64,000 bases of DNA, taken from an uncultured bacterium (GTDB lineage Bacteria > RBG-13-66-14). The position numbers were made by a program, and so were the translations under genes. Of the stretch, positions 15,283-45,939 are shown one piece after another. Numbering within the stretch: position 1 is the stretch's first letter; every line of letters starts with the position of its first letter. The stretch spans positions 834-64,833 of the forward strand of contig CAZNZF010000004.1 in the NCBI GenBank assembly GCA_964577465.1, given 5' to 3'. Below the pieces are notes generated by a model, which had not been told where the DNA came from, ran no database searches, and saw only the letters and a program-made list of their open reading frames with translations.

Positions 15283-15286
15283 CGGT

Positions 15287-16878: not shown

Positions 16879-16892
16879 GGTTCCTCCACACC

Positions 16893-17891
16893 TCACTCGA
16901 AGGAGTCGCAGAGCGTGACCCACCCGCCGTCGGGCTTCATGATAAAGAGCGCTCCGGTCGAGTCCACCGCGAAAATCATGTGTGTGTCGCGGCTCTGTGC
17001 CCGGTACACTGCCAGGTCCAGGGGGGGCGTTCCGCCGCACGGCTCACCGAACGGCTCGTACGCGTCGTCCTGGGGAAGGTAGAGCCGACCGGTACCGTCC
17101 AGGACCTGGAGCTCGGTGAAGACCCTCCCGTCGGCGGCGGATTTGATGAAGCCGTCCAGCCGGTAGGGCGCCGTGCCGCCGGTGATTTGGCCAAACTCCT
17201 CCCAGCCGGCATCCGTGCACCGGCTGATGCGGCCCGTCTCGTCAATCACGACGATGTACGTCTCCCCGAGGGCGGCGATGTCGGTGGTGGTCAGGGCCAG
17301 GAAGTCGGTGGGGGCGGCACCGGTGTAATCCACGTCGAAGGGGTACGGTTCCCAGACGAGCTTCAGTGCGTCGAAGAACCACAGGCGGCCGTCGCCGTCC
17401 AGCGCGATGGGGTACACACCGGACACCTTCGGGTCCTGGGCGGAGGACAACTGGTAGGGCGGCGGTCCCGGAACGGGCTTGCCCTTGGGATTCCAGCCCG
17501 TGTGGGTCAGGCTGTAGAGCTGCCCCGCGCCGTCCAGGGCGAGGAAGGCCCAGTTTTCAGCCTGCTGGTCCCAGTGCAGCACCAGCTCGTACGGACCGTC
17601 GCCGGGGCAATTTTCACCCGATGTAACCCAGTTCCACCGCTTCCCCTCGATGTAGTACCCGCCAGTGGAGTCCCACCTCAGAACCTCGTCCCGCTCCACG
17701 GACGACCCCTCCCGCGTGTAACCGGCCAGCTCCAGCTCCAGGTCGCCGCCGGGGCGGCGGTGGAACGTCCCGGAGTCGTCCACGACCCCGATGATGTTCT
17801 GGTTCGTCGCCGGATTCCACGCCAGGTCCAGGTCCAGGGCGCGGCCCGAGACCGCGGTCAGAACAAGAATGCAGACGGGGAGTGGCTTCAT
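16893..17891 (-). CDS. Secreted beta-propeller-like repeat protein B
   Basis: Signal peptide MKPLPVCILVLTAVSG. Same repeat architecture, and a C-terminus (..DGGWVTLCDSFE) like that of A (..DGGWETYFDSF). Confidence 0.6.
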   Translation of the reverse strand: MKPLPVCILVLTAVSGRALDLDLAWNPATNQNIIGVVDDSGTFHRRPGGDLELELAGYTREGSSVERDEVLRWDSTGGYYIEGKRWNWVTSGENCPGDGPYELVLHWDQQAENWAFLALDGAGQLYSLTHTGWNPKGKPVPGPPPYQLSSAQDPKVSGVYPIALDGDGRLWFFDALKLVWEPYPFDVDYTGAAPTDFLALTTTDIAALGETYIVVIDETGRISRCTDAGWEEFGQITGGTAPYRLDGFIKSAADGRVFTELQVLDGTGRLYLPQDDAYEPFGEPCGGTPPLDLAVYRAQSRDTHMIFAVDSTGALFIMKPDGGWVTLCDSFE

Positions 17892-17910: not shown

Positions 17911-19719
17911 CTAGCCCGTTTTGTACCGATAGTCGGGCAGTATCATGGGGCTCGTCCGGTCGGTCTCGACGCCGGCCTCCTTCAGCTCCCGTTCGTACCT
18001 CTCCACGTGGGCGAGGGTGAGCTCGCCGACCTCGGCGCCACGGGCGAATTTGGCCGCCGCGATGCCCGCGCGGCGCCCGAAGACGGTGATGTCCAACAGG
18101 CTGTTGCCCATCAGCCGGTTGCGCCCGTGTATCCCACCGGCGACCTCGCCGGCGGCGAAGAGCCCCGGGATTTGCGTCGAGGTGTCGGGTTTTATCGCCA
18201 GCCCGCCGTTCTGGTAGTGCAGGGTCGGGTAAACGAGCATCGGCTCCTTGGAGATGTCTATCCCGTGCCGCATGAACTGCTTGTACTTGGCCGGGAGCTC
18301 GTGCTGAATGGTGCCCGGCCCCTGGATGATTTCTATCATGGGCGAATCGAGCCAGACGCCGTGGCGGCCGGTGGGGGTCAGGACTCCCTTGCCGCGTTCC
18401 AGGCACTCGCGCATGAGGGCGGAGGACTCCACGTCGCGGGGCTCCTTGGGGAAGACGAAGTCCTCGCCGTCCCGGTTGACCGGCTCGGCGCCCAGGCCGC
18501 GGACCTTCTCCGTGATTAGGAGCCCTATGTTCTGCTCCGGATACGCCGCCCCGGTGGGATGGTATTGGATGGAGTCCATGAAGCGCAGCCCCACGCCGAC
18601 CCGGTAACCGAGGATGAGCCCGTCGGCGGTGGCGCCGTAGTGGTTGGTGGTCGGGAAGCCCTGGATGTGCAGCCGGCCGATGCCGCCGGTGGCGATGACC
18701 GTGGACTTGGCCCGGACGATTTTGAAGTCGCCGGTCTCCATGTTCTTCATCACGGCGCCGCCGCAGTGCCCCGCGTCGTCCAACAGGAGCTCCACCACGG
18801 GGGAGAACTCCACGACCTCTATCTGCGGGCGGTTGCGTATCTCGTCGCGCAGCACGCGCATTATTTCGGCGCCGGTCATGTCCCCGGCCGAGTGCATGCG
18901 CTTGCGGCTGGTGCCGCCGCCGTGGAGGGTGTACATGACGCCCTCGGCGTCCTTGCCGAACATGACGCCCAGCCGTTCGAGCCACTCGATGACCATCGGC
19001 GCGTCGTTGGTGAGTGCGGCGACCAATTCCCGGTCGTTGGAAAAGTGGCCTCCGCCGACGACGTCGAGGAAGTGGATGACCGGGTTGTCCTGGGGCTTGT
19101 CCGCCGCCTGGATGCCGCCCTCGGCCATGACCGTGTTGGAGTCTCCGTGGCGGAGCTTGGTCACCAGCAGGACCTTGGCCCCCTCCTCCTGGGCTATGAG
19201 CGCGGCCGAGGCCCCCGCCCCTCCGGCCCCGATGACCAGAACGTCGACGTCGTAGTTCGGTTTCCCGAGCTCGATTTGGGCATCGGCCAGGAGGGAGTGG
19301 GCCTCGATGAGGTCGGCGAACTCATCGGGCACCCGCTCACCCCTGTTCACCCCGACGACCAGCGGGCGCATCCCGGTGTCCTTGTAGTCCGGGTGGAACT
19401 TCTTCAGGACGCGCTCCCGCTCCGCCATCGTCATCGGCTTGAAGTAGCCGATGCCGTCGAGCTTCTCCAGTTCCTGGGCGTCGGCGGTGTTGACGTTGGT
19501 CTTGCCCGGCTCGTCGGTGAGGGATACCTGGCCCTTGATGGCCTCGAATATCTCGGCGTCTATGCCGGGCACGCGGGTCAGGTCGCGGATGTCGCGGAAG
19601 GGGCCCTTGTCCTCGCGGTAGGCGACGATGCGCTTGGGCGCCAGGCGCTTGGCGATGCGCTTCTCCCGGGTGGCGGCCACCTTCTCCGCCAGCTCCTTCA
19701 GTTCGGGGGTGTAACCCAT
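17911..19719 (-). CDS. Succinate dehydrogenase / fumarate reductase flavoprotein-like FAD oxidoreductase with an N-terminal helix-hairpin-helix extension
   Basis: GAGGAGASAAL dinucleotide fold. ..GLFAAGEVAGGIHGRNRLMGNSLLDITVFGR.. resembles SdhA/FrdA. The N-terminal ~100 aa have ComEA-like HhH motifs. Start trimmed to ATG (GAGGAG RBS); the ORF begins at a TTG at 19746. Confidence 0.65.
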   Translation of the reverse strand: MGYTPELKELAEKVAATREKRIAKRLAPKRIVAYREDKGPFRDIRDLTRVPGIDAEIFEAIKGQVSLTDEPGKTNVNTADAQELEKLDGIGYFKPMTMAERERVLKKFHPDYKDTGMRPLVVGVNRGERVPDEFADLIEAHSLLADAQIELGKPNYDVDVLVIGAGGAGASAALIAQEEGAKVLLVTKLRHGDSNTVMAEGGIQAADKPQDNPVIHFLDVVGGGHFSNDRELVAALTNDAPMVIEWLERLGVMFGKDAEGVMYTLHGGGTSRKRMHSAGDMTGAEIMRVLRDEIRNRPQIEVVEFSPVVELLLDDAGHCGGAVMKNMETGDFKIVRAKSTVIATGGIGRLHIQGFPTTNHYGATADGLILGYRVGVGLRFMDSIQYHPTGAAYPEQNIGLLITEKVRGLGAEPVNRDGEDFVFPKEPRDVESSALMRECLERGKGVLTPTGRHGVWLDSPMIEIIQGPGTIQHELPAKYKQFMRHGIDISKEPMLVYPTLHYQNGGLAIKPDTSTQIPGLFAAGEVAGGIHGRNRLMGNSLLDITVFGRRAGIAAAKFARGAEVGELTLAHVERYERELKEAGVETDRTSPMILPDYRYKTG

Positions 19720-19795
19720 CGAATACTCCTCTGGGAATCGCTTCAATCGGGGCCGCCCGCGGGCGGGATGACCCCGAGCCGTTTCGGGGGAGGCG

Positions 19796-20494
19796 TCAAT
19801 CGGGTTCGCGGTCGGCCTGGGTCTCCTTGTATCGCCGCGTGAGCTCCTCGTCCTTCGCCTGGATGAGATGGGCCAGCTCCTCGTCGTACCTGCCGTTTTT
19901 TATCTCCTCGACCCGCGCCGTGAGGTCGGGCGCCTTGGGGCGCATGTGGCGCGCGTAGAGGCGCCGGGCGAGGATGCCGATGTTGTACTGCACGTTCTCG
20001 CCGGGACACCGGCTGGCGCACAGCCCGCACATGAGGCACTCGAAGGAGAGCTCGGCCACCCGCTCCAGCTCGCCCTTCATCGCCGCCGACATGTACTCCA
20101 TCACCTCCAGGTCCTGGGGGCAGACCTTCGAGCAGGCGTTGCACCCCATGCAGCGCAGCAACTCCGGGTAGCGCTCGATGAGGGCCTCCGCGGTGGGCTC
20201 CAGCTTCTCGATGTCGTAGGTGGCCTTGTTGGCCGGGTAGAAGGGTATCTGGGCCAGGTACATCTCCGGCTCGACCACGGTCTGGCAGGCGAGGCCGCTC
20301 TTGAGCTTGTAGTCGCCGGCGGTGCGGTACACCGTCCCGCAGGCGCCGCAGATTCCCCCGCGGCAGCCGCAGCCCCGGATGAACTGGTAACCGGAATACT
20401 CTATCGCCTTGAGGATGGTCAGCGTCTCGGGCACCTGGTACTTCTTGCCCATGATGTAGATGTCTATCATCCTCGCTTTGCCCTCTTCACCCAT
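19796..20494 (-). CDS. SdhB/FrdB-like iron-sulfur subunit ([2Fe-2S] plus two [4Fe-4S]/[3Fe-4S] motifs)
   Basis: CGCRGGICGACG, CMGCNACSKVCP and CLMCGLCASRCP. Confidence 0.7.
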   Translation of the reverse strand: MGEEGKARMIDIYIMGKKYQVPETLTILKAIEYSGYQFIRGCGCRGGICGACGTVYRTAGDYKLKSGLACQTVVEPEMYLAQIPFYPANKATYDIEKLEPTAEALIERYPELLRCMGCNACSKVCPQDLEVMEYMSAAMKGELERVAELSFECLMCGLCASRCPGENVQYNIGILARRLYARHMRPKAPDLTARVEEIKNGRYDEELAHLIQAKDEELTRRYKETQADREPD

Positions 20495-20558
20495 GACGTT
20501 GCTCCAGGTTTGGCTTACGGTTGACGACGAAAAGGACCCTCGGCTCGGGAGCCGCGTC

Positions 20559-21029
20559 CTACCAGGCGATGAGGATGCCCAGAAGTACGCCGAACAAAAA
20601 GCCGATGAGCGCGGCGAAGTAGCGGTCGAGCTGGTTGAGGGTCTTGCTCTTGGGCAGGGTTTCCACCACCCGCTTGTCCACGATGTACTGCTTGATGTCC
20701 AGGTCGGTCTGGGGGCAGGCCAGGGCGCAGGAGTAGCACTGCTCGCAGTCCTCGCCCACGATGGACTCCAGCGCCATGGAGGTGCGCTGGGCCGTGCGTT
20801 CCAGCCGCTCCGGCTCGCGCCGCAGCACCGGGCAGGAATCCACGCAGTTGCCGCAGGCGATGCACCCCTTGTCCGAGGCGAGGTCCCGGCCCTCGGAGTG
20901 GAGGCGGTTGTAAAGCTCCATGCCGGTGGACAGGAGCCTGGTCCGCGCCACCGGGGGCTCCTTCATGTCGAAGATGCGGTCCAGGGTCCGCTGGATTTGT
21001 TTCAGGTCGCGCTCTTTGGTGGCTGGCAT
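20559..21029 (-). CDS. Di-cluster [4Fe-4S] ferredoxin with a C-terminal transmembrane anchor
   Basis: CIACGNCVDSCP and CEQCYSCALACP, followed by a hydrophobic tail FAALIGFLFGVLLGILIAW. Confidence 0.6.
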   Translation of the reverse strand: MPATKERDLKQIQRTLDRIFDMKEPPVARTRLLSTGMELYNRLHSEGRDLASDKGCIACGNCVDSCPVLRREPERLERTAQRTSMALESIVGEDCEQCYSCALACPQTDLDIKQYIVDKRVVETLPKSKTLNQLDRYFAALIGFLFGVLLGILIAW

Positions 21030-21071: not shown

Positions 21072-21818
21072 TTACGGCGCCAGGGCCGCGGCGAGGTCCG
21101 TGGAGAACCGGCCCAGGCAGTCGTTGGTCGCGGCGGAGACGACCCGGTTGTACGCCTCCAGGTCCGCGTCCTCGGCGTAGCCGGAGTATGTGCCGCTCAT
21201 GACCGTCCGCCCCCCGGCGTCGGTGAGCGCGTAGTCTATGTCCACCTCGGCGGCCAGGTACTCGCCGGCGAAACCGCCGATGGTTCCCGCCGTCGTGGCC
21301 GCGGCCCCCCCGCCCAGGGTCCACCAAATCCAGGCCGGGAAGCCGACCTCGGAGCAGGTGGCGAGGTTGGCGATGATGTAGACGCCCAGAGCGCCCATCC
21401 CGACGACGAAGGCGACGGAACCGGCGATGGCCAGGATTATCCAGCCCGTCGGCGTGCGGACCGCCAGACAGAAGCCGGTCAGGTTGCCCTTCAGGACGTA
21501 GTCGCCTTCCTCCGAGATGGATACCGCGCCGAAGAGGCGGCCGGCTTTCAGGTAATCCGCCGTGGCCAAGGTCAGGTACTCCTCGAGGTTCTCCACGTGG
21601 GGCGGCGGCGGGGTGATGATTTCGCCCATGTCCCGGCCGTACTTGGTCGGGCCGGTGACGATGAGCGACTCGACCCGCAGGGTGCCGGGGATGGACACCG
21701 CGCCCGGTTTCGCCGTCGGGACGAAGCCCGTTATCCTCTGGTACTGCGTCGCGCACGAGGTCACCAGAAACACGTAGAGCATCGCCGTGCACACCGCGCG
21801 CAGAAATGCTTTCCGCAT
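21072..21818 (-). CDS. Lipoprotein with C-terminal TM helices, hypothetical
   Basis: Trimmed to MRKAFLRAVCTAMLYVFLVTSC (GGAGG RBS). Gly-rich TM region near the C-terminus. Confidence 0.5.
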   Translation of the reverse strand: MRKAFLRAVCTAMLYVFLVTSCATQYQRITGFVPTAKPGAVSIPGTLRVESLIVTGPTKYGRDMGEIITPPPPHVENLEEYLTLATADYLKAGRLFGAVSISEEGDYVLKGNLTGFCLAVRTPTGWIILAIAGSVAFVVGMGALGVYIIANLATCSEVGFPAWIWWTLGGGAAATTAGTIGGFAGEYLAAEVDIDYALTDAGGRTVMSGTYSGYAEDADLEAYNRVVSAATNDCLGRFSTDLAAALAP

Positions 21819-22032
21819 TACGTCACCCTCCCCGGACCGGTCAATCTTTCGGCTGACGCGCGAGCCCCCGACCAACGGGATTTAAACCGTAAACCGCCGT
21901 ATTCTCCGCGTACCTGCCGGCCGGCCGACGGCTATTGCCATGCTACCAGATGACGCCCCCCGGCGGAACCCCCGTCGTCGGGCCTCGTTTGTCGAAAAAA
22001 ACCACCGGTGTCGCGACCCGCTCAGGTTCCAT

Positions 22033-23163
22033 TTACATTCCGCCGGACCCGCCGGCCACCTTGCGCGCCAGGCGGTTGACCACCTCGGAGAGGTCCTCCA
22101 CCGCCCCGGTATGCTCCGCCGTCTCGTTCAGCACGACCTGGGCGTCCGACACGTCCACCCCGCGCACGGACAGGATGTACTTGGAGCCCAGCTTCGAGAG
22201 CGAGCCGATGAGGATGACCTCGACGTCCAGAATCTGGCCGGCGGTTACGGCGCACTCCACGTCGGTGCAGCCCGACAGGACGAAGCCCTGCTCCTCGAAG
22301 ATTTCCCCCATGCGGCTGCGCTCGATGACGACGAAGCGCCGGGTGTTGAACAGGGCGGAGCGGAATAGCTCGCTCACCGTGGCCGCCTCGGATTCGGGGA
22401 CGCCGATGGGCTCGAAGTCCAGGATGGCGATGCGGGTCGCCTCGCTCAGATGGGCGCCGGCCCCGCCCCCCGGGGCGAAGTCCAGGTCGCGGACCACCGG
22501 GGTCAGCATGGTGAAGGCGCCGTCGAGGGCCTCGTTGACGGCCTGGCGCATCGCCTCGTCGAAGCCTTCGCCGTCCTCGGAGCGGCCCCGGCCGTAGAAC
22601 GTCCCCTCGTAGAAGGTCTCCCGGGTGTAGGGGTCGAGGAGCTCGACGTCCAGCTCCAACTCAGCCTTGACATAGGGAATTAAAAGCCCGGGCACGAGGC
22701 AGGCGGTGGAGAGACCGAGATAGACGGGCCAGGTTTTATGTAGCTCATTATCGGTCGGCTGAGCCAGGCTCATGACCGCGCCGGCTCCGTAAATGCCGCC
22801 GCATATATCCAGAACCAGCCCCCAGCCCTCGTTCTCCTGTTCGCAGTTGAAGCTGCGCAGGTCCAGCTTCAGGACCAGGTCGGATTCGCCGCTGTTGACG
22901 ATTTCCGAGAACAGCTCCTTTTCGAAGGCGTAGTACTTGCACGACTCGGTGAGGTAGTCGGTCAGGTTGGGGAACCGGGTGTCAGTGGTGAACGTGCCGT
23001 GGAGGTTGACCGGCTCGATGAAAACCGTGTAGGGCGTGGGTTCCTCTTCGGGTTTGGCCGTGGGCCGGTACTGGCTTAAGGTGTGCACCTCGACGGAGCA
23101 GCCCGCGACGAGAACGCCGAGCATAAGCGGAACGATGACAAACCTGAAATTCTTCTTCGACAT
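22033..23163 (-). CDS. Lipoprotein with a C-terminal CsgG/LpoB/TolB-N-like domain
   Basis: MSKKNFRFVIVPLMLGVLVAGC lipobox. C-terminal ..RIAILDFEPIG...RFVVIERSRMGEIFEEQGF...ILIGSLSKLGSKYILSVRGVDVSD.. follows the pattern of CsgG-like periplasmic domains. Confidence 0.45.
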   Translation of the reverse strand: MSKKNFRFVIVPLMLGVLVAGCSVEVHTLSQYRPTAKPEEEPTPYTVFIEPVNLHGTFTTDTRFPNLTDYLTESCKYYAFEKELFSEIVNSGESDLVLKLDLRSFNCEQENEGWGLVLDICGGIYGAGAVMSLAQPTDNELHKTWPVYLGLSTACLVPGLLIPYVKAELELDVELLDPYTRETFYEGTFYGRGRSEDGEGFDEAMRQAVNEALDGAFTMLTPVVRDLDFAPGGGAGAHLSEATRIAILDFEPIGVPESEAATVSELFRSALFNTRRFVVIERSRMGEIFEEQGFVLSGCTDVECAVTAGQILDVEVILIGSLSKLGSKYILSVRGVDVSDAQVVLNETAEHTGAVEDLSEVVNRLARKVAGGSGGM

Positions 23164-23291
23164 GGGTCCCCTCCCGGATAATTAAGCGATTTCCAGTGAA
23201 TGAACTTGACGTGAATTTTATCCCGGCCGGCCCGAATCGGAGGTGCCCGGCCGTTTCATACAGCTTATTTCCGTGCGCGGTGCCCGGCGCC

Positions 23292-24272
23292 TTAGAGCTC
23301 GAAGAGGCTCCGCTTGGCGGCGATGGCCTTCCCCGCCATGGAGACGGCGCTGATGCCGTTGGGGCAGCGCGCGGCGCAACGGGCGCAGCCCACGCAGTAC
23401 TTGGCCAGCTCCTCCACCCGGGCGTAGTTGCCCAGCCGCGTCTCCAGCACCATGGTCATCGGCAGCGGCACGTCGTCCTCCACCCGTCCCACGGGACACA
23501 CGCCGACGCAGGCCTGGCAGTTGTAGCAGTTCAGGCTCTCGCCGGTGTTGCGGACCACGACGCCGGAGATCATGAAGTCCAGCATGAAGATGATGCCGAA
23601 GATGATGCAGAGCTGGAAGAGGGTCTCGCGGGATACGTCTCCCACGGTGAGCCACTGCAGCGCCAGGATGGGCCAGGGCTGCTCCCCGGCGCCCCCGGCC
23701 TCGGCCAGCGCCTCCCGGCTGGCCGCGACGATGCCGTTGGTGGTGAAGGTGGCTCCGGAAATCGCGTCTACCTCCAGGCTCCTCGACGACGCGATGGCGG
23801 CGGGAACCTCGACCAGGGACCGTTCCACCGCGGGCCGGCCCCCGCTCTCCGACTGCGAGGTGACGGAAAGCTCGAGCGAACCGTCCTGCCCCACCACCGC
23901 CGTGACCTCGAGGGGCTCGACGGTGTTCTTCCCCACCCCGTGGCCGGTGTAGGTGCCGGGCTGGAGGGCATCGAAATCGATGCGCTCGGCGACCGTCAGG
24001 ACGTAACCCGCGGCCATGAAAAGCGTCGGAACCCCCAGGATGAGAAGCACCAGGACGAGGCGGTTCCTCTTCGCCCACCGGGAGGCGGGCCCCACGACGA
24101 GGAAGCTCGCGCCCAGAATCACGAGAAGGATCAAGCGGGAGGCGGGGAAGAATACCGCGATGAGGATGGTGGCGATGGCGATGCGCCAGGGGCGGCTCGG
24201 CATGAGCTTCCCCACCAGCGCCTTCCCCCTCCCGGGCGCTACACCGGCCGTGGTCGCCCTAGCGGACGGCAA
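23292..24272 (-). CDS. Membrane protein with an FMN-binding domain (flavinylation-type SGAT motif) and a C-terminal 2x[4Fe-4S] ferredoxin domain (mini NosR-like)
   Basis: TM helices. ISGATFTTNGIVAAS is an FMN_bind-like domain. CYNCQACVGVCP and CVGCARCAARCP. The true start may be an internal Met (~24203). Confidence 0.55.
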   Translation of the reverse strand: MPSARATTAGVAPGRGKALVGKLMPSRPWRIAIATILIAVFFPASRLILLVILGASFLVVGPASRWAKRNRLVLVLLILGVPTLFMAAGYVLTVAERIDFDALQPGTYTGHGVGKNTVEPLEVTAVVGQDGSLELSVTSQSESGGRPAVERSLVEVPAAIASSRSLEVDAISGATFTTNGIVAASREALAEAGGAGEQPWPILALQWLTVGDVSRETLFQLCIIFGIIFMLDFMISGVVVRNTGESLNCYNCQACVGVCPVGRVEDDVPLPMTMVLETRLGNYARVEELAKYCVGCARCAARCPNGISAVSMAGKAIAAKRSLFEL

Positions 24273-24903
24273 CGTTCACCTCCCTCTCCTTGATGATGCC
24301 CTGCATCTCGTTGTAGAGCTTGAGAACCTTCTCGTAGCCCGGTTTGGAGTACCGGGCGAGGGCGGCCGCCTCCGTCAAGGGCTCCCGGCTCTGCGGGTCC
24401 ACGAAGCCCTCGTTCAGGACGAGCCCGGCATCAATCTTGCCCGAGGCCAGGGCCTCCAGCGTCAGCTCCTGCATCCGGGCCGCCAGCTCGGGGATGTTGA
24501 TTTCCAGGATGCACCACTTGGTGCAGTTGCCGCACTGGGTGCAGCGCAGCCCGCCCTGGCGGATGAACCGCTCGTAGTCGGCCGTCCGCGACGCGACGAC
24601 CATCTCCACCGGGTAGATGTACTCGGGGCAGTTCTGCCCCTCGGGCTGAGACAAGACGCGCATGCAGGCGCGGTCCTCCAGGCAGTAAACCGAGTAGCCG
24701 GTGCCGGAGAATATCGCCTTGAAGATGATGAAGGCCAGGCTGAGGGCGATGATGACCATGGCGATGCGGTTGAGGTTCTTGGTGAGCATCCGGTGCTGGG
24801 ACTTGGAGATGAACTGGTAGCGCCGGACGCCGGGCAGAACCTCGATTTCCTCCCGGGGTGGGCCGTAAACGAGCCGCTCGTCTTTGTCGTTCTTTTTTGC
24901 CAT
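24259..24903 (-). CDS. Single-pass membrane ferredoxin-like protein
   Basis: One TM helix, then CLEDRAC...NCPEY and CTQCGNCTKWC Cys motifs. Overlaps the downstream gene by 14 nt (operon). Confidence 0.45.
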   Translation of the reverse strand: MAKKNDKDERLVYGPPREEIEVLPGVRRYQFISKSQHRMLTKNLNRIAMVIIALSLAFIIFKAIFSGTGYSVYCLEDRACMRVLSQPEGQNCPEYIYPVEMVVASRTADYERFIRQGGLRCTQCGNCTKWCILEINIPELAARMQELTLEALASGKIDAGLVLNEGFVDPQSREPLTEAAALARYSKPGYEKVLKLYNEMQGIIKEREVNVAVR

Positions 24904-24939
24904 TTTTAAATCACACCCGCGCCCTGGACCGGGTGGAGG

Positions 24940-25106
24940 TCAGGTAATCATGTACAGAATCGCCGCGATGATTCCGCCCAGGGCCCCCTGCAGGAGGCCC
25001 TTGCGCGTGCGGAAATCCATGGCGTACGCGATGACCGCCCCGGAGAATGCGCCGCCGAGGAGAAAGACGATCCAGGTTAAAAATGCGCCGGGTTCCAGCG
25101 TTCCCC
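24940..25106 (-). pseudogene. Orphan duplicate of the C-terminal ~50-aa module of the upstream membrane protein, with no canonical start codon
   Basis: Reads ..AFLTWIVFLLGGAFSGAVIAYAMDFRTRKGLLQGALGGIIAAILYMIT*, paralogous to ..ATWITFLVGGAFSGMVITFSL...LLQGAFGGIIAGALLLVT* at the end of 25107..26879. Lies in a different frame, immediately after that gene's stop. Confidence 0.4.
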
Positions 25107-26879
25107 CTAGGTCACTAGGAGCAGGGCTCCGGCGATGATCCCGCCGAAGGCCCCCTGCAGGAGGTAGGCGAGGAGGGGTCCGGAGCTGACGAAGCCCGAG
25201 GCCTGGTCGGGCCAGAACAGGGAGAAGGTGATGACCATGCCGGAGAAGGCGCCGCCCACCAGGAACGTTATCCAGGTGGCCAGGTTTTTCTCCTTCTCCT
25301 GGGTCGGCGTGCGTCGCTTCTTGAACGTGGCGGGATTGATGAACTTTATCATTCCCAGGTTGAGCACGAACAGGCCGGCGAGCAGGCCGAAAAAGATGAG
25401 CAGGTTCTCCAGGCGGAAGGGGTTGTGGGTGAGCACCAGGAATCGCATCACCAGCGCCGCCAGGGGGGTCATGGCCGCCATGATGCCGTAGCTCTGGGCG
25501 TTGCGCAGGTATCCGATATCGGAGCGCACCATCCCCTCGGAGATGGTGCCGATGCCGCCGATGGGACTCGGACCGCAGCTCGCCGCCGCGTTCACGATGA
25601 AGGCGGCCAGCACGATGGCCAGCTGGTTGTAGGTCAGAAGGCCCGAGGCGTTGGGCATCCAGCCGGTGGCCGGCCCCATGGCCACCACGATGGGGAGCAG
25701 CGCCGCCGCCAGAATCCGCCCGCAGGGCATGGGCATGATGGTCTCGAGCTGGACGAAGAGGGCTATCATACCCGCCACGCCCAGGCCGACCCCCGCGACC
25801 TTGAACTCCGACAGCCAGACGAGCACCTGGCTCAGGGCCTTGAACCCACCCGAGACCGCCAGCGAGCCGGCCATCAGGAATCCGGCCACCAGGGCGGTGA
25901 TGGGGTGGAGGATTATCCCGGCGATGACTTGACGGATGGAGAGCCGGGCGATGAGCATGATGACGACCGTGGCCACCAACAGGGTGGTGGTGATGGGGGT
26001 CTTGCCGAAGAGCCCGAAGACCGCCCCGATGAGGGCCACCAGGAAGATGCCCAGGGAGATGTAGCCGACGAGGGGCGCCTTGAACTTCCGGGCGATGACC
26101 TCCTCTTCGTGCGCGCGGGCCAGGCTCTCGTCGGAGGTCGAGGCGGCGCCACCGCTCACCGCGAGCTGACGACCCTCGGTGAGCCGGATTTTCTCCTCCA
26201 TGTCGAACTTGGTAACGAAGAGGCTGATGAAGAGCGCGGTGAAGGCGGTGCCGATCATGATGCCGAATTCCTGGGCGCTGGTCAGGAATCCGAGCTGCTG
26301 GAGGAAGCCCTCGCCGATTTGCCCGATGCCGCCGATCTGGCTGGGTCCGCAACTGGCCGCGGCGTTGACCGCCAGCGCGGTGACCAGAACCACCATCTGT
26401 TTCTTCGTTATCAGTCGCACGCCCTCGGGGCCGAGGGTGATGATGACGGGCAGGAGCGCCGCCGCCTGAATCCGTCCGCAGGGCATGGCGAAAATGGTGG
26501 CGAACTGGGCGATGAAAACCATCGTGCCCGCCATGCCGAGAGGGGTGCCGCGCATCTTGTTGATGACGACGCGCAGCGCGGCGAAGCCCCCGGAGCCTTC
26601 CAAGGCGCCGGCGACCAGGAACCCGCCGGCCATGGCCATGATGGGCAGGAGGATGACGTTGGACCCCACCGCCGAGCCCAGGGAGAGCATCTCGGAGAGG
26701 GACCCGCCGTCCAGCCAGATCGCCAGGGCGGTCATGACGATGTTGACCAGCGCCCCGACTATGAGCAGCGACTGAAGCGGTATCGGAATCAGCCGTCGTC
26801 CGCCCACCATGATGAGCGGGCCCAGGACGGTGAAGACGAAGACGAGAAGACTCAGGATGCCGACAATCTCGTGGGCCAA
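25107..26879 (-). CDS. Large polytopic membrane protein with internal tandem duplication (transporter-like, family not identified)
   Basis: 590 aa. Two homologous halves, each with MPCGRI..AALLP and NAAASCGPSxIGGIG motifs. The overlapping alternate-frame ORF 24940..26904 is rejected. Confidence 0.55.
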   Translation of the reverse strand: MAHEIVGILSLLVFVFTVLGPLIMVGGRRLIPIPLQSLLIVGALVNIVMTALAIWLDGGSLSEMLSLGSAVGSNVILLPIMAMAGGFLVAGALEGSGGFAALRVVINKMRGTPLGMAGTMVFIAQFATIFAMPCGRIQAAALLPVIITLGPEGVRLITKKQMVVLVTALAVNAAASCGPSQIGGIGQIGEGFLQQLGFLTSAQEFGIMIGTAFTALFISLFVTKFDMEEKIRLTEGRQLAVSGGAASTSDESLARAHEEEVIARKFKAPLVGYISLGIFLVALIGAVFGLFGKTPITTTLLVATVVIMLIARLSIRQVIAGIILHPITALVAGFLMAGSLAVSGGFKALSQVLVWLSEFKVAGVGLGVAGMIALFVQLETIMPMPCGRILAAALLPIVVAMGPATGWMPNASGLLTYNQLAIVLAAFIVNAAASCGPSPIGGIGTISEGMVRSDIGYLRNAQSYGIMAAMTPLAALVMRFLVLTHNPFRLENLLIFFGLLAGLFVLNLGMIKFINPATFKKRRTPTQEKEKNLATWITFLVGGAFSGMVITFSLFWPDQASGFVSSGPLLAYLLQGAFGGIIAGALLLVT

Positions 26880-26930
26880 AAATGCTCCAACGCAGGTTGT
26901 TCAATCCGCCCGGATGAGCTCAGCAATCCG

Positions 26931-27314
26931 TTAGGGTGTACTTCCGGGACCCGGAGCCAGCAGCTTCTCGATGCGCTTGACCACGTCGAGGGGGTTGAAC
27001 GGCTTGGTCACGTGCAGCGCGATGCCGATCTCCCGGCTGATTCTCTTGTAGAGCGGTCCCGAGTGACCCGTGATTATGGCGACGGGGGTCGACGACAGAA
27101 GCTCGTCGGCCATCAGGTCGTGGTACAGCTTGTAGCCGTCCAGGCCCGGCATAAGGAGGTCCAGGATGATGACGTCGGGCCGTTCCCGCATCGCCGCGGA
27201 GAGGACGGTGGCGGGATCGGAGAGGGAGATGGTTTCATGCCCCCGGCTCTTGAAGGCGAGTCCCAGCGTCTCGACGATGTGCCGTTCGTCGTCCACGATC
27301 ATGATTCGGGCCAT
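26931..27314 (-). CDS. Stand-alone response-regulator receiver (CheY-like)
   Basis: MIVDDERHIVETL.. with an acceptor Asp in ..VIILDLLMPGLDG.. and ..TKPF... Confidence 0.8.
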   Translation of the reverse strand: MARIMIVDDERHIVETLGLAFKSRGHETISLSDPATVLSAAMRERPDVIILDLLMPGLDGYKLYHDLMADELLSSTPVAIITGHSGPLYKRISREIGIALHVTKPFNPLDVVKRIEKLLAPGPGSTP

Positions 27315-27334
27315 TTAGGATGCCTCCCGGCACA

Positions 27335-27757
27335 TCATCGAACGCCCGTGCCCGCCTCGCGGTTCACGGCCGGCTCGTCGGCGGACCCCGGCGCTCGTCC
27401 GAGCAGGCGCTCCACCTGCTCGACCACCGCGTACGGCTTGAAGGGCTTGGTCAGATGCAGCCCGGCGCCTAACCCATCGCTGATGCGCCGGTAGATTTCG
27501 TCGGGCTTCGCGGTGAGCAGGACCACCGGAATCCGCGACACCCGTTCCTCCTCGCCCAGACGGTTGAGCACCTCGTAGCCGTCCATACCGGGCATCATGA
27601 GGTCGAGGATGATGGCGTCGGGTCTTTCCCGGTCGGCGAGGGGGACGCACAGCGTCGCGTCGGACACGCCCACGACCTGGTAGCCCCGTTTCTCGAAGGC
27701 CAGGGAGAGTGTCTCGACGATGTGCCGCTCGTCGTCCACTATCATTATCTTCGGCAT
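27335..27757 (-). CDS. Stand-alone response-regulator receiver (CheY-like), tandem paralog
   Basis: N-terminus identical to the neighbour over MIVDDERHIVETL. ..AIILDLMMPGMDG.. and ..TKPF... Confidence 0.8.
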   Translation of the reverse strand: MPKIMIVDDERHIVETLSLAFEKRGYQVVGVSDATLCVPLADRERPDAIILDLMMPGMDGYEVLNRLGEEERVSRIPVVLLTAKPDEIYRRISDGLGAGLHLTKPFKPYAVVEQVERLLGRAPGSADEPAVNREAGTGVR

Positions 27758-27780
27758 GGATCCCGCCCCGCCCCTTTCTT

Positions 27781-27831
27781 TTTACCGGGGCATTACTCGC
27801 TTCGTTTGGTTTTCAAGGGGTCTCAAGCCCC
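27781..27831 (+). repeat. Repeat family B copy (TTTACCGGGGCATTACTCGCTTCGTTTGG, missing one CTTCG unit) followed by a degenerate family A half-palindrome (CAAGGGGTCTCAAGCCCC)
   Basis: Intergenic, upstream of the REC gene at 27757. Confidence 0.6.
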
Positions 27832-27985
27832 CCGGTTCCCGGCCCTCCGCCGTGTAGCTGATTTAATTCCCACCACGCAAGTGTATAATACACCGCCGCC
27901 CGTTCCCGCGCAACCCCTCAGACGCGGCGACTTCCGATTTTACACCTCTTCAATCCCCGCGGCCGCGGCCGTTCCGAGGCCGCGA

Positions 27986-28960
27986 TTACCCCGGGTAGTC
28001 GCCCTTCCGGTCCGCGGCCCCGCCCTCCGTAGTTCCCCGTCGCTCGTGGACCACTATGTTTCCGGGTTTGCCCTTGCCGAACTTCTTCAGCTCGGTGACG
28101 ACGTCGGCAATCTCGGCGGTGGTGGTGAAGCGCCGCTTCTCGCTCGACACCAGCTCGATGGTCAGGGTGAGCGTGGCGGGATACCGGCGCAGGCAGCCGG
28201 TGCGGTCCTTTATCTCGTAGTAATCCCGCCTCAGGTCGGCCTCGTCGAAGTAGTCCTTCACGCCCTCGCCGAAGAGCTCGATGACCCGGTCCGCCAGCTT
28301 CTCGGCCTCCTGGTGGTAGCAGAGCATCATGAAGTCGTCCCCGCCGATGTGCCCGACGAAGTCCTTCGGCTTGCCCAGCGCCCGGTTGGTCTGGACGAGG
28401 CAGTGCGTGAGAAGACGGATGACGGAATCGCCGCGGGCGTAGCCGTAGTAGTCGTTGAAGCTCTTGAAGCGGTCGATGTCGGCGTAGAAGAGGGAGTAGG
28501 GTTTGCCGGAGCGGATGACTTCCTTGAGCCGATGCTCGATCTCCAGGTTTCCCGGCAGGCCCGTCAGCGGGTTGCAGCCGAGTTGGTAGCGCGTGCGCGA
28601 CAGGACCATCTTCGCCCGGGCCAGGAGCTCCCGCTGGGAGAAGGGCTTGGCGATGTAGTCGTCGATGGAGTGCTCGACGCCCCGCTCGAGGTCGATGATG
28701 TCCTGCTTGGCCGTCAACAGAATCACCGGGATGTGGGCGGTCTCGAAGTCCTTCTTCAGCTCGGAGCACACCTGATAGCCGTCCATCCCCGGCATCATCA
28801 CGTCCAGGACGACGAGCTCCGGGTTGAAGACCTTGACCTGCTCCAGGGCCTCCTCGCCCGAAGGGCAGGTCAGGACCGTGTAGTTGTCGCCCTCGAATAC
28901 GGTCTTGACGATCGAGCGGATGTCGGGGTCATCGTCAACGACCATCACCCGTGTCGACAT
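27986..28960 (-). CDS. Response regulator with GGDEF domain (PleD-like; GGDDF variant motif)
   Basis: REC domain (VMVVDDDPDI.., ..VVLDVMMPGMDG..) followed by a GGDEF domain with ..HIGGDDFMML... Confidence 0.8.
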   Translation of the reverse strand: MSTRVMVVDDDPDIRSIVKTVFEGDNYTVLTCPSGEEALEQVKVFNPELVVLDVMMPGMDGYQVCSELKKDFETAHIPVILLTAKQDIIDLERGVEHSIDDYIAKPFSQRELLARAKMVLSRTRYQLGCNPLTGLPGNLEIEHRLKEVIRSGKPYSLFYADIDRFKSFNDYYGYARGDSVIRLLTHCLVQTNRALGKPKDFVGHIGGDDFMMLCYHQEAEKLADRVIELFGEGVKDYFDEADLRRDYYEIKDRTGCLRRYPATLTLTIELVSSEKRRFTTTAEIADVVTELKKFGKGKPGNIVVHERRGTTEGGAADRKGDYPG

Positions 28961-29030: not shown

Positions 29031-29085
29031 CACCGGGGCGTCACTATCGCGCGAATCAGGGGGCCATTATAAAACTCCCCCCCCC

Positions 29086-29120
29086 GTTTTGCCAAGGCAC
29101 TACTCGCTTCGCTTCGTTTT
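29086..29120 (+). repeat. Repeat family B copy (GTTTTGCCAAGGCACTACTCGCTTCGCTTCGTTTT)
   Basis: Directly abuts the nadD stop at 29122. Preceded by a GGGGG...CCCCCCCCC hairpin (~29059-29084). Confidence 0.7.
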
Positions 29121-45867: not shown

Positions 45868-45939
45868 TCCGCGCCTTGTCTCCATTGATTCTTGACCAAA
45901 GGGGTCGTCCTTTATATCATGGGGGCCGTGAGGACGGCG

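Follow-up and report, generated by a model that had tools for sequence, protein, structure and literature searches.

A gene set shared by many anaerobic bacterial phyla appears to give a fumarate-reducing enzyme its link to the cell membrane

In the fumarate reductase flavoprotein of E. coli (FrdA), loss of the histidine that binds FAD covalently, as in the H44 mutants, ends the oxidation of succinate, while the reduction of fumarate remains. Fumarate is respired to succinate by Natranaerofaba carboxydovora, which is devoid of quinones according to both lipid analysis and gene content, and in which FrdAB alone was identified, and not the membrane anchor (PMC8359318). This organism carries a minimal form of the module described here (locus L001), and the FrdAB named in that paper is a candidate for the SdhAB-like pair of this locus.

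The genes analyzed here lie in a 64-kb window, i.e., the whole stretch of DNA under study, in which the initial annotation had listed eight genes on one strand at positions 22033-28960 and read them as a single cluster combining a phospho-relay, cyclic-di-GMP, and flavinylated Fe-S proteins. All eight genes are present on the minus strand, with a coding-type GC3 of 0.85-0.93, and these observations are confirmed, while the interpretation is partly supported. The genes belong to a larger set that is kept across many anaerobic bacterial phyla.

The conserved gene set

At 86 related loci from approximately 10 phyla, the 590-aa membrane protein (MEM590) is followed by a 52-aa micro-protein, a 214-aa ferredoxin (P214), and a protein that combines FMN_bind and 2x[4Fe-4S] domains (FMNFER326 in the window), and then, after a slot of variable content, by a 156-aa ferredoxin (FER156), an SdhB-like protein, and an SdhA-like flavoprotein. 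This order, from MEM590 to the SdhA-like gene, runs along one strand throughout, and was found in the Clostridia, Halanaerobiales, Planctomycetota, Zixibacteria, and KSB1, as well as in the Acidobacteriota, Zhuqueibacterota, Thermodesulfobacteriota, and Coatesbacteria. In 68 of 75 loci, P214 is encoded downstream of the membrane protein, and in 55 of 60 its gene overlaps or abuts the FMN_bind gene (an overlap of 14 nt in the window). Where at least 9.5 kb of downstream sequence was available (55 loci), all five downstream genes were found in 38 under strict criteria, with only three true exceptions.

The interval initially delimited omits the ferredoxin, SdhB-like, and SdhA-like genes at 17911-21029 that give the module its function. 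Its boundaries are arbitrary, since the run of same-strand genes extends over approximately 7.2-44.9 kb and the genes with a functional link reach, on the downstream side, at least to 17911. The larger cluster holding the flagged genes occupies approximately 14.2-29.0 kb of the minus strand (Table 1), and its conserved core is probably a two-part respiratory module. As no description of the MEM590/P214/FMN_bind unit was found in the literature, the earlier claim of an undescribed system holds for this unit, which is a tightly co-conserved membrane redox unit, while the response regulators and the lipoproteins are restricted to one lineage.

Table 1. Features of the cluster and of its upstream region, in window coordinates
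Feature	Positions	Strand	Basis or remark
Sigma-70-like promoter match, TTGGCA-18-TATAAT	29066..29095	-	11/12; REC-GGDEF start lies ~105 nt downstream
Response regulator, REC + GGDEF-like (GGDDF)	27986..28960	-	Pfam Response_reg 105 bits, GGDEF 51.9 bits
REC140, stand-alone receiver domain, 140 aa	27335..27757	-	Pfam 82 bits
REC127, stand-alone receiver domain, 127 aa	26931..27314	-	Pfam 72 bits
MEM590, core membrane subunit	25107..26879	-	Internally duplicated elevator (IT-superfamily) fold
Two-helix micro-protein, 52 aa, core component	24940..25098	-	CTG start; comparative
P214, dicluster ferredoxin-type, 214 aa, core component	24259..24903	-	N-terminal conserved motif and hydrophobic helix
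FMNFER326, 326 aa, core component	23292..24272	-	FMN_bind 29.9 bits (cut-off 22); two CxxCxxCxxxCP
Lipoprotein with CsgG-like stretch, variable slot	22033..23163	-	Lipobox LVAGC; sequence, Pfam
Second lipoprotein, variable slot	21072..21875	-	Lipobox LVTSC; sequence
FER156, 2x[4Fe-4S] ferredoxin, C-terminal TM anchor, core	20559..21029	-	Pfam, synteny
SDHB232, SdhB/TfrB-like Fe-S subunit, core	19796..20494	-	[2Fe-2S] motif and two CxxCxxCxxxCP
SDHA611, SdhA/FrdA-family flavoprotein, N-terminal HhH extension, core	17911..19746	-	FAD_binding_2 244.8 bits
U332, secreted repeat protein	16893..17891	-	Sequence
U342, secreted repeat protein	16012..~16878 (start uncertain)	-	Sequence
Cytochrome b (PetB-type, 226 aa) and membrane-anchored hexahaem cytochrome c (352 aa)	14224..15967	-	Pfam

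The gene content of the slot differs by lineage. In the window, it is occupied by the two lipoproteins, whose lipoboxes bear out their original recognition, the second of which matches no Pfam family and is partly paralogous to the first; the two have their match at one and the same place in locus L004. Their homologues are limited to the slots of L004 and L005, the two closest relatives, and occur in no other phylum, which removes them from the conserved unit to which they had been assigned. Homologues of U332 and U342, which are paralogues, were likewise found only in L004 and L005; neither has a Pfam family or a detectable relation to the NHL/Tat propeller with which the module occurs elsewhere, and they may be periplasmic accessories. 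The cytochrome b and the cytochrome c, which has six CxxCH motifs, are candidates for a quinol-interacting partner of the module in this lineage.

The proteins of the membrane part

MEM590 was correctly described as internally duplicated, with halves that are 38% identical (E 7e-38). It is not a known transporter; it belongs to no Pfam or NCBIfam family, and among 1.84 billion proteins its representatives number only 87. Its sole Pfam match, to CitMHS, reaches 20.1 bits, under the cut-off of 31.9, and HMMER linked it to no transporter family among the 1.84 billion representatives. The closest matches of its AF2 model (pTM 0.80) are true C4-dicarboxylate transporters, led in Foldseek by VcINDY (E 1.7e-6), at a sequence identity of only 13-15%. 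Four Cys (C134, C177, C386, and C435) are invariant in 87/87 sequences, as are two residues each of Arg, Asn, and Glu. Each repeat holds two of these Cys, one at a hairpin tip and one at a helix break, which in the AF2 model lie between helices 115-130/135-149 and 159-175/185-193 and their equivalents in repeat 2. In DASS-fold proteins, the central binding site is built from these elements. The secondary structure and the fold class suggest that the four Cys converge, and a pseudo-symmetric pair of invariant Arg adjoins them.

The gene for the micro-protein, a ninth in the interval, was overlooked in the earlier listing due to its CTG start. It is kept in 59 of the 60 gaps between MEM590 and P214, and its frame and start were fixed by comparison with L006, where an ATG stands at the identical codon. 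The micro-protein is a paralogue of the C-terminal hairpin of MEM590, being 45% identical to residues ~533-590 (E 4e-14).

P214 matches no Pfam family and its AF2 model has a low pLDDT, of 41. One hydrophobic segment and seven Cys that are invariant in 74/74 sequences agree with the single-pass, ferredoxin-like character ascribed to it; the eighth ligand position is a Cys in 63 and an Asp in 11, including the window. The P214 of the Planctomycetota, near which there is no SdhAB, carries a fused cytochrome b561-type domain (40.8 bits vs. a cut-off of 30.1). The downstream protein, FMNFER326, was also read correctly as an FMN-binding membrane protein with an SGAT motif (VDAISGATFT, i.e., DAISGAT). 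It consists of TM helices, the FMN_bind domain, which is predicted to face outward, one more TM helix, and a cytoplasmic 2x[4Fe-4S] domain, in which all eight Cys are invariant (61/61). The canonical flavinylation motif is present in approximately 15 of the 61 orthologues, including the window, and its absence from around three quarters of them indicates that covalent FMN is not essential to the module in general. The motif is canonical where the slot has no cytochrome, but has degenerated in loci with NapC or Qrc-like genes. An ApbE gene was found neither in the window nor in the six annotated loci inspected.

The reductase part

Among the Fe-S proteins of the reductase part, FER156 has eight invariant Cys (58/58), and SDHB232 shares 53% identity with its Chloroflexota orthologue. 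The best PDB matches of SDHA611 are SdhA and FrdA (top match 7d6v_A, E 1e-68), all the catalytic residues for fumarate/succinate align to those of E. coli FrdA, and N204, H396, T412, E413, R437, H510, and R544 are kept in 44-45 of 45 sequences. The covalent-FAD His is replaced by Asn throughout the clade (45/45), which, together with the intact catalytic residues, is the pattern of fumarate reductases. Compared with the classical SdhA/FrdA, the C-terminal domain is shortened and the N terminus is extended.

The flavoprotein may, of course, act on another substrate, such as L-aspartate or a 2-enoate (e.g., urocanate, acrylate, or mesaconate), or work as a succinate dehydrogenase that passes electrons outward. 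This would suit the altered termini, the labels “aspartate oxidase” and “FAD-binding protein” given to clade members by the sources, and the inclusion in FAD_binding_2 of reductases of other specificity, but it is distinctly unlikely, given that both His/Arg pairs of FrdA, its Thr-Glu pair, and its proton-shuttle Arg are invariant, and that an SdhB-like partner always adjoins the flavoprotein gene, a partner that L-aspartate oxidase is not known to have. In view of the E. coli H44 mutants, the missing covalent-FAD His likewise speaks against this reading. The neighbours also argue for fumarate: a homologue of the fumarase beta subunit occurs in 15 loci of at least four lineages, and Firmicutes loci include fumarase alpha, succinyl-CoA synthetase, malic enzyme, and a DASS transporter, while one carrier organism has been shown to reduce fumarate to succinate.

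The reductase part is modular. The same SdhB and SdhA pair is found with a soluble HdrA/FlpD/CCG module instead in the Chloroflexota and Omnitrophota, and in one Coatesbacteria locus (L008) the membrane part stands alone, without SdhAB. MEM590, with P214 and the micro-protein at its side, follows its redox partners instead of the reductase.

Regulators, transport, and electron transfer

The Pfam matches agree with the proposed REC-GGDDF regulator and two tandem receiver proteins. REC140 and REC127 are paralogues (52% identical), and the sequence of the former presents the acidic pocket, the phospho-acceptor Asp, and the Thr/Lys; L006-L008 have a single REC gene at the matching position. The cyclase activity of the GGDDF domain is uncertain, judging from a signature with Asp for Glu at position 4, an alignment with solved cyclases over the N-terminal two-thirds only, and the absence of an RxxD site. 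A single redox-sensing or signalling system formed by these regulators and the flavinylated Fe-S proteins is very unlikely. The REC-GGDEF and REC genes do lie directly 5' of MEM590 in 5/5 Coatesbacteria loci, including L008, with gaps of 20 nt (REC140-REC127) and 51 nt (REC127-MEM590), and there is a promoter-like site ahead of the REC-GGDEF gene, although this is a consensus match only, in a region with four such sites vs. 2.1 expected by chance. However, the module is accompanied by REC and GGDEF genes in the Coatesbacteria alone (L004-L008), and by none in approximately 80 loci of other phyla, so that the conservation of the neighbourhood, which the initial annotation had named as the decisive check, is lacking for both regulators and lipoproteins. 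The number of REC genes varies (1 or 2) among the relatives. Given that synteny in the Coatesbacteria extends equally to the upstream housekeeping gene nadD, shared ancestry accounts for the linkage of the regulators as well as shared function does. No histidine kinase, and no c-di-GMP riboswitch or other Rfam element, was found in the window. The three regulator genes are a Coatesbacteria-specific addition, which would at most control the expression of the module there.

On the other hand, MEM590 may be a plain transporter, for fumarate uptake or succinate export or as a Na+-coupled carrier of C4-dicarboxylates, with P214 and the FMN_bind/Fe-S protein alone providing the membrane attachment and the electron path. 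This reading is kept because of the C4-dicarboxylate transporters among the best fold matches and the two invariant Arg, which would suit a dicarboxylate; VcINDY structures have been solved with fumarate, malate, or succinate, and the weak CitMHS match points the same way. Catabolic operons also often include transporter genes. It is nevertheless unlikely, given the low identity, the lack of any HMMER link, and a presumed binding site with four invariant Cys, which is atypical for carboxylate carriers. Moreover, MEM590 pairs with P214 even where SdhAB is not nearby (L002, L010, L008), Frackibacter already has a bona fide DASS transporter adjoining the module, and the minimal modules of the Clostridia have no other candidate for transmembrane electron transfer.

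The comparative sequence evidence favours, with reasonable confidence, an undescribed membrane electron-transfer module that serves a cytoplasmic fumarate reductase, even though two lipoprotein genes particular to this lineage lie between the two parts in the window. The back part (FER156, SdhB-like, and SdhA-like) would be a fumarate reductase related to complex II, with FAD bound non-covalently and Fe-S clusters arranged in a chain, and the front part (MEM590, the micro-protein, P214, and FMNFER326; 23292-26879), possibly assembled with it into one complex, would replace the classical FrdC/D or cytochrome-b anchor. Through the front part, electrons would pass between the membrane's outer face and the Fe-S chain in the cytoplasm, which would supply the FAD site for the reduction of fumarate to succinate. 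In this organism, the carrier at the outer face would be covalently bound FMN, a role that NapC-type cytochromes or Qrc-like quinol modules would take in other lineages. MEM590 would be the transmembrane conduit, whether by means of an Fe-S centre with Cys ligands or of a redox-active dithiol, and may additionally link electron transfer to the movement of ions. The conserved set as a whole appears to connect the enzyme that reduces fumarate with the cell membrane by means of undescribed proteins.

Gene content and extent of the cluster

The analysis as a whole was built on sequence, synteny and one predicted structure. The genes that the initial annotation had placed between positions 22033 and 28960 are all present on the minus strand, with their coordinates unchanged and with GC3-rich codon use, in a window whose GC content is 65-70%. 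Pfam agrees on the REC-GGDEF regulator, the two stand-alone receivers and the protein that combines an FMN_bind domain, with its VDAISGAT motif, and a dicluster ferredoxin (FMNFER326). The internal duplication claimed for the 590-aa membrane protein (MEM590) is borne out by halves that are 38% identical (E 7e-38), and a lipobox was found in each of the two claimed lipoproteins. The organism behind the window is related to Candidatus Coatesbacteria: MEM590 is 93% identical to the membrane protein of RBG_13_66_14 and 96% identical to its counterpart in locus L004 (Coatesbacteria).

The boundaries of this interval are an arbitrary cut, and the same-strand run to which it belongs spans about 7.2-44.9 kb. 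No histidine kinase is encoded within the 64-kb window, and ApbE is encoded neither there nor in six annotated loci. Over the whole window, Rfam gave no match at gathering thresholds, i.e., neither a c-di-GMP riboswitch nor any other known RNA. Scans of the region for terminators (13 matches, against 9 by chance) and promoters (4 against 2.1) gave counts so near to chance that they were not used for operon definition.

The union of phospho-relay, cyclic di-GMP and membrane redox proteins in a single system, as initially proposed, stands only in part. When neighbourhoods were compared across 86 loci, co-conservation was found for the three redox/membrane genes and was lacking for the signalling genes and both lipoproteins, which are refuted as constant members given that REC/GGDEF homologues lie beside the module in five Coatesbacteria loci only, and lipoprotein homologues occur only in the two closest relatives. 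The phospho-acceptor residues (DD...D...T...K) are kept in all three receivers (Pfam, 72-105 bits). The GGDEF domain (51.9 bits, covering only profile positions 5-104 of 161) retains the substrate and metal motifs; however, its signature is GGDDF, it has no RxxD site, and its last ~90 residues align to no solved cyclase. Short gaps and a promoter-like site suggest that the regulators may control the expression of the module in Coatesbacteria, and no such link was found outside this group among the compared loci. A specific association of tandem REC genes with the SdhA clade, considered from the Omnitrophota locus L088, was rejected, as the REC proteins found there are 26-36% identical to those of the window, which is background.

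Features of the window and of the compared loci referred to in the text (nt; interval, 22033-28960)
Feature	Position	Strand	Place or remark
Housekeeping group phoH / 7TM-HD / ybeY / dgkA			further downstream
PetB-type cytochrome b (226 aa), then membrane-anchored hexahaem cytochrome c	14224-15967	minus	downstream of interval; second gene 4 nt later, three N-terminal TM helices, six CxxCH
Two paralogous secreted repeat proteins (about 290 and 332 aa)	16012-17891	minus	downstream of interval
SDHA611, SdhA/FrdA-family flavoprotein (611 aa)	17911-19746	minus	downstream of interval
SDHB232, SdhB/TfrB-like Fe-S protein (232 aa)	19796-20494	minus	downstream of interval
FER156, dicluster ferredoxin (156 aa)	20559-21029	minus	directly downstream of interval; C-terminal TM anchor
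Lipoprotein	21072-21875	minus	variable slot
Lipoprotein	22033-23163	minus	variable slot
FMNFER326, FMN_bind/2x[4Fe-4S] protein	23292-24272	minus	
P214 (214 aa)	24259-24903	minus	
Micro-ORF (52 aa, two TM)	24940-25098	minus	CTG start; ATG at that codon in L006 (Coatesbacteria)
Terminator-like hairpin and T-run	25086-25100	minus	immediately past MEM590 stop; overlaps micro-ORF start
MEM590 (590 aa)	25107-26879	minus	
Two stand-alone REC proteins		minus	upstream of MEM590
REC-GGDEF regulator	27986-28960	minus	upstream of MEM590
Promoter-like site	29066-29095		
nadD, bamD, alaS			upstream of interval
DUF6529/DUF4079 membrane protein	35984-36616		after the 2768-aa protein
Giant protein (2768 aa)	36613-44919	minus	
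DUF2229/HGD-D 'CoA enzyme activase'-like protein, then HdrD-like protein	45892-48571	plus	
ATP-dependent PEP carboxykinase	49643-51430	plus	~20 kb from module
P214-b561 fusion (506 aa), L002	11655-13175		Planctomycetota
SdhB/SdhA-like pair, HdrA/FlpD/CCG set, two REC genes, PilS-like kinase and hybrid Rnf/Nqr cluster, L088	12913-20814		Omnitrophota
Accessory families preceding MEM590, L084	8653-9945		
Accessory families preceding MEM590, L085	8691-9997		

Several other features of the window were recorded. The two cytochrome genes make up a quinol:cytochrome c pair of the Cbc-like kind, and no Rieske protein is encoded near them. The two secreted paralogues, whose homologues are confined to the two closest relatives, carry repeated 'D-x-x-G-x-L-[YWF]' units, belong to no Pfam family and look beta-propeller-like. 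The giant protein carries N-terminal PD40 (WD40-like) repeats, many TPRs and a C-terminal CHAT protease-like domain. On the plus strand, the activase-like protein and the HdrD-like protein, which has 2x[4Fe-4S] and two CCG domains, make up an uncharacterised redox pair. The PEP carboxykinase is compatible with a reductive C4 branch supplying fumarate, and it was not counted as context of the module because it is too distant.

The conserved gene order and its probable reductase pair

At least 504 homologues of MEM590 were found, every one labelled 'hypothetical', and relatives occur in 153 species-level genomes. The same-strand order is shared by ~10 phyla, and it runs from MEM590 through P214, the FMN_bind/Fer4 protein, a variable slot and FER156 to the SdhB-like and SdhA-like proteins. 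Under strict criteria, all five downstream genes are present in 38 of the 55 loci that have at least 9.5 kb of downstream sequence; the genuine exceptions are three (two Planctomycetota and one Coatesbacteria), and the remaining incomplete loci mostly reflect large insertions or a coverage cut-off effect. The P214 and FMN_bind genes overlap or abut in 55 of 60 cases.

The slot that the lipoproteins occupy in the window is empty in Natranaerofaba and in one other Clostridia genome, and elsewhere it is filled by cytochromes of the NapC/NirT type (at least 49 loci), in many cases together with a four-cluster Fe-S protein and NrfD (44 loci) and a molybdopterin-family subunit (30 loci), a gene set that resembles the Qrc/ACIII parts list. 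Outside Coatesbacteria, MEM590 is preceded by a ~116-aa protein of no Pfam family (SMALL116), which has a CxxC motif and a TM helix at its N-terminus (69 loci), and by an NHL beta-propeller of ~313 aa with a twin-arginine signal (66 loci, 61 of them with RRx[FLIVM]). These families can be seen in L084, L085 and about 65 further loci, and HMM searches found neither of them encoded in the window, whose two secreted paralogues, U332 and U342, likewise did not match the NHL/Tat propeller family.

The flavoprotein of the module matches FAD_binding_2 (PF00890) with 244.8 bits, and its best solved relatives are SdhA/FrdA proteins, headed by Mycobacterium smegmatis Sdh1 (7d6v_A, E 1e-68) and including Escherichia coli FrdA (E 3e-52). 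The alignment to the latter places equivalents of H232, T244, E245, R287, H355 and R390 in SDHA611, in the form of the QYHPTG histidine, the Thr-Glu pair, the PRD arginine, the HY histidine and the NRL arginine, and these catalytic residues are kept in 44-45 of the 45 orthologues. The histidine that carries the covalent 8-alpha-FAD (FrdA H44) is absent, S-N-T standing for S-H-T, with Asn in all 45 orthologues. Covalent FAD is required for succinate oxidation and dispensable for fumarate reduction, so that this pattern points to a fumarate reductase. In the SdhB-like partner, a [2Fe-2S] pattern and two full CxxCxxCxxxCP motifs are invariant, and since the third cluster motif possesses four cysteines, a [3Fe-4S] cluster is not indicated.

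The metabolic neighbours are consistent with this reading, given that a fumarase beta-subunit homologue lies in the neighbourhood in 15 loci of at least four lineages, and the Firmicutes loci also contain fumarase alpha, succinyl-CoA synthetase, malic enzyme and a DASS transporter. The flavoprotein clade, with more than 8000 matches at E <1e-30 and 62-69% identity across phyla, is far larger than the MEM590 family, and in Chloroflexota and Omnitrophota the same SdhB and SdhA pair stands beside HdrA/FlpD/CCG genes with the membrane module absent. The combination of one reductase pair with different input modules identifies the reductase as a modular terminal enzyme. In L088, this arrangement is followed by two REC genes and a PilS-like kinase, and the locus also has a hybrid Rnf/Nqr cluster composed of RnfC-like, RnfD, FMN_bind, two Rnf-Nqr and NqrF-like subunits.

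The membrane part of the module

MEM590 yielded a usable AlphaFold2 model (pTM 0.80), whose closest PDB folds in Foldseek are the elevator-type transporter VcINDY (5ul7, E 1.7e-6), ArsB, NaS1, Pho90 and TRAP-QM, at 13-15% identity, with TM-scores to VcINDY and ArsB of 0.43-0.65. The model and the similarity of the repeats agree on an elevator fold with two hairpin-bearing repeats. At the level of sequence, the CitMHS match is sub-threshold (20.1 bits, against a cut-off of 31.9), NCBIfam gave no match, and a profile search of 1.84 billion proteins at E <=1e-3 returned only 87 representatives, all of which are from MEM590's own family.

In all 87 of these sequences, the cysteines C134, C177, C386 and C435 are invariant, as are two Arg, two Asn and two Glu, placed symmetrically in both repeats within the motifs PCGR and NAxxSCGPSxxGGxGxxxEG. 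Each of the cysteines lies in a short non-helical stretch of the model, C134 and C386 where the two helices of a hairpin meet and C177 and C435 in a helix break, and in the modelled fold the hairpin tips and helix breaks are the central binding-site elements. Both cysteine motifs are also kept in single-repeat homologues (P0129, P0131, P0133 and P0138).

In the single-repeat homologues, the repeat follows a large extracellular domain of the beta-helix (NosD-like) or CARDB-like type, and the tails are rich in lysine and glutamate; homologues of the first and the second half exist as separate proteins too. These fusions were considered as a clue to function and set aside, as their only hint is an N-terminus that faces outward.

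Between MEM590 and P214, a gap of ~220 nt encodes a two-helix micro-protein of 46-52 aa in 59 of 60 loci. It escapes the usual listing of ORFs, and its paralogue is the hairpin at the C-terminus of MEM590 (45% identity). The terminator-like hairpin at the start of the micro-ORF could modulate translation or read-through, although such matches occur here near chance frequency.

P214 belongs to no known family and has seven invariant cysteines of the dicluster ferredoxin type, C-x2-(C/D)-x2-C...CP and C-x2-C-x2-C-x3-C, the window protein being the Asp variant. Its AlphaFold2 model, based on 12 sequences, was unusable (mean pLDDT 41). Export of the Fe-S domain by the Tat pathway was rejected, given that the 'RR' of PGI[RH]R[FY]QFF is often HR, RI or KI and that the motif lies ~17 polar residues away from the hydrophobic segment. 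Planctomycetota carry P214 as a fusion with a membrane domain of the cytochrome b561 type (40.8 bits, cut-off 30.1), and a word-indexed homology search for further fusion architectures returned only 11 close relatives. The fusion in L002 comes after a weakly DsbD_2-like membrane protein and before NikR, with no SdhAB within 10 kb.

FMNFER326 matches PF04205 at residues 123-189 (29.9 bits, cut-off 22), and VDAISGAT at residues 168-175 conforms to the flavinylation motif D-x-x-[ST]-G-A-T. The positive-inside pattern, with the loop SRWAKRNR before the TM helix that leads into the domain, predicts an extracytoplasmic FMN_bind domain. The canonical motif is found in about 15 of 61 orthologues (the window, Clostridia, Halanaerobiales, Planctomycetota and Zixibacteria), and it is degenerate in the others, among them those of Desulfomonile/Syntrophaceae, KSB1 and Acidobacteriota, whose loci contain cytochrome c and Qrc-like genes. 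Given this loss in most orthologues, covalent FMN is not universal to the module, and the pattern fits the flavin/cytochrome interchange noted by Meheust et al. 2021 (PMC8238504).

Known systems, possible roles of MEM590 and significance

The module is classified, on its predicted proteins, as a fumarate reductase of the complex II type whose membrane module is undescribed. It shares with complex II an SdhA/FrdA-type flavoprotein with the full catalytic set and an adjoining SdhB-type subunit, and it differs in the predicted non-covalent FAD (Asn for His), the four cysteines of the third cluster motif, and a flavoprotein whose C-terminal domain is truncated and whose N-terminus is extended relative to classical SdhA/FrdA. 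The complex II review distributes the membrane anchors in classes A-F, among which there is nothing like the front module; no cluster protein matched SdhC/D, SdhE/F with CCG or Rieske-type SdhC families, and the membrane part consists instead of an elevator-fold protein, a micro-protein, two TM-anchored ferredoxins and an FMN_bind domain. An Fe-S centre within a complex II anchor has a precedent in the class F Sdh1 of M. smegmatis (PDB 7D6V; PMC8054011). The flavinylation surveys recognise five transmembrane classes (NapH-like PF12801, MsrQ, PepSY, DsbD and RNF/NQR-like), and the architecture of the module is found neither in them nor in the complex II review; targeted literature searches found no description of it.

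FMNFER326 resembles the NapH/NosR-like class 1 of Meheust et al. 2021 (PMC8238504), which is defined by a membrane Fe-S protein with PF12801 or KEGG K19339, in that a single polypeptide combines TM helices with an FMN_bind domain on the outer side and a 2x[4Fe-4S] domain on the cytoplasmic side, and varied oxidoreductase partners and cytochrome interchange are common to both. It has, however, far fewer TM helices and no PF12801 match (12 families matched), and the terminal enzyme of the module is cytoplasmic, unlike the extracytosolic one of that class. The module also adds MEM590, P214 and the micro-protein, none of which is mentioned in the text of this survey, nor is succinate.

The thiol:fumarate reductase TfrAB and other fumarate reductases wired to Hdr-type modules likewise have a cytoplasmic SdhA/SdhB-like pair, non-covalent FAD and an Fe-S module rather than quinol as donor, and SDHB232 matches the TfrB model weakly; in the window and about 50 other loci, on the other hand, electrons would enter by a module that is bound to the membrane and has no relation to Hdr, and the window cluster has no CCG domain. 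Qrc/ACIII-type quinone modules connect periplasmic cytochromes with cytoplasmic reductases, and many loci interleave the module with genes of the kind found in the transmembrane Qrc, Tmc and Hmc complexes of sulfate reducers (NapC-like cytochromes c, the four-cluster Fe-S protein, NrfD and the molybdopterin-family subunit), but these genes are optional, missing in the window and in the Clostridia loci, and these systems have no counterpart of the conserved core proteins.

The physiological context comes from Natranaerofaba carboxydovora (L001), which has the minimal module with fumarase and succinyl-CoA synthetase on its flanks. This organism grows with fumarate as electron acceptor and forms 5.7 mM succinate from formate and fumarate, it has Na+-based bioenergetics, and its lack of lipoquinones was established by direct analysis and gene content; FrdAB was the only component identified, and the authors ask how the electron-accepting complexes connect to the donors (PMC8359318). 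The module is a candidate answer to this question. It is probably a fumarate reductase in which the front module substitutes for the membrane anchor, as judged from gene order and motifs. Electrons would pass to the FAD through the SdhB-like protein, FER156 and the cytoplasmic dicluster domain of the FMN_bind protein, and MEM590, the micro-protein and P214 would bridge across or along the membrane to the outward FMN or to cytochromes or, where quinones are absent, would link instead to a cytoplasmic low-potential donor.

Within this model, the chances that MEM590 serves as a redox conduit are about even, its centre being a putative Fe-S cluster, a dithiol or none, and any ion coupling being putative as well. 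Its fold, shared with DASS/IT elevator transporters such as VcINDY, ArsB and NaS1, down to two repeats with a hairpin and a broken helix each, would suit a plain dicarboxylate transporter, which is nevertheless an unlikely role. MEM590 has no sequence-level membership of these families, its repeats are unusually alike (38%), it is obligatorily associated with Fe-S proteins, and at the tips it has the conserved motifs PCGR and SCGPSP(I/L)GG where DASS proteins have Ser-Asn-Thr motifs. The occurrence of MEM590 and P214 without nearby SdhAB in Planctomycetota, and of the front genes alone, without the reductase part, in L008 (Coatesbacteria), indicates that MEM590 follows its Fe-S partner and not the reductase, which argues against a plain substrate-transporter role.

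A bolder extension of the redox conduit, and a rather improbable one, is that MEM590 is not a transporter and its elevator scaffold holds an intramembrane Fe-S cluster or dithiol, liganded by two cysteines per repeat, in a quinone-independent, Na+- or H+-translocating redox loop. Low-potential cytoplasmic donors (ferredoxin or formate-derived electrons) would drive fumarate reduction through a loop that leaves the cytoplasm, reaches the FMN on the outer face and returns, via the micro-protein, P214 and the flavinylated FMN_bind/Fe-S protein, with translocation of Na+ or H+. If true, NQR and RNF would be joined by a third type of flavin/Fe-S redox pump with an evolutionary origin of its own, which would account for fumarate respiration in quinone-free anaerobes such as Natranaerofaba.

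Na+-NQR and RNF resemble the module in having a covalently flavinylated outward FMN_bind subunit (NqrC/RnfG type) in the electron path, which is predicted for the module, and cytoplasmic Fe-S domains on the flanks of the membrane part, and one carrier of the module relies on Na+ bioenergetics. The two homologous halves of MEM590, with two cysteines each, parallel NqrD and NqrE (RnfA and RnfE), which together bind a [2Fe-2S] within the membrane (PMC10643135), as a functional analogy only. The module differs in that it has no homologue of NqrB/RnfD or NqrD/E/RnfA/E (no PF03116 or PF02508 match), the MEM590 fold is of the IT superfamily and not Rnf-Nqr, and its cofactor and pumping are only putative.

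Fumarate respiration is among the most widespread anaerobic energy metabolisms, and, to our knowledge, the described membrane-bound fumarate reductases all have a quinol-oxidising anchor of classes A-F. The module would be a further architecture, made from proteins without an assigned family and occurring in no fewer than 153 species-level genomes, which include Clostridia, Acidobacteriota and many candidate phyla. Five genes annotated as 'hypothetical' or generic 'ferredoxin' and one unannotated micro-ORF would thereby gain a functional context. If MEM590 holds a redox centre, it would provide a new route for electrons across the membrane, and if it holds such a centre or pumps ions, that part would be categorically new. 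The module may thus offer a concrete answer to how a quinone-free, Na+-dependent organism, in which only FrdAB had been recognised, respires fumarate.
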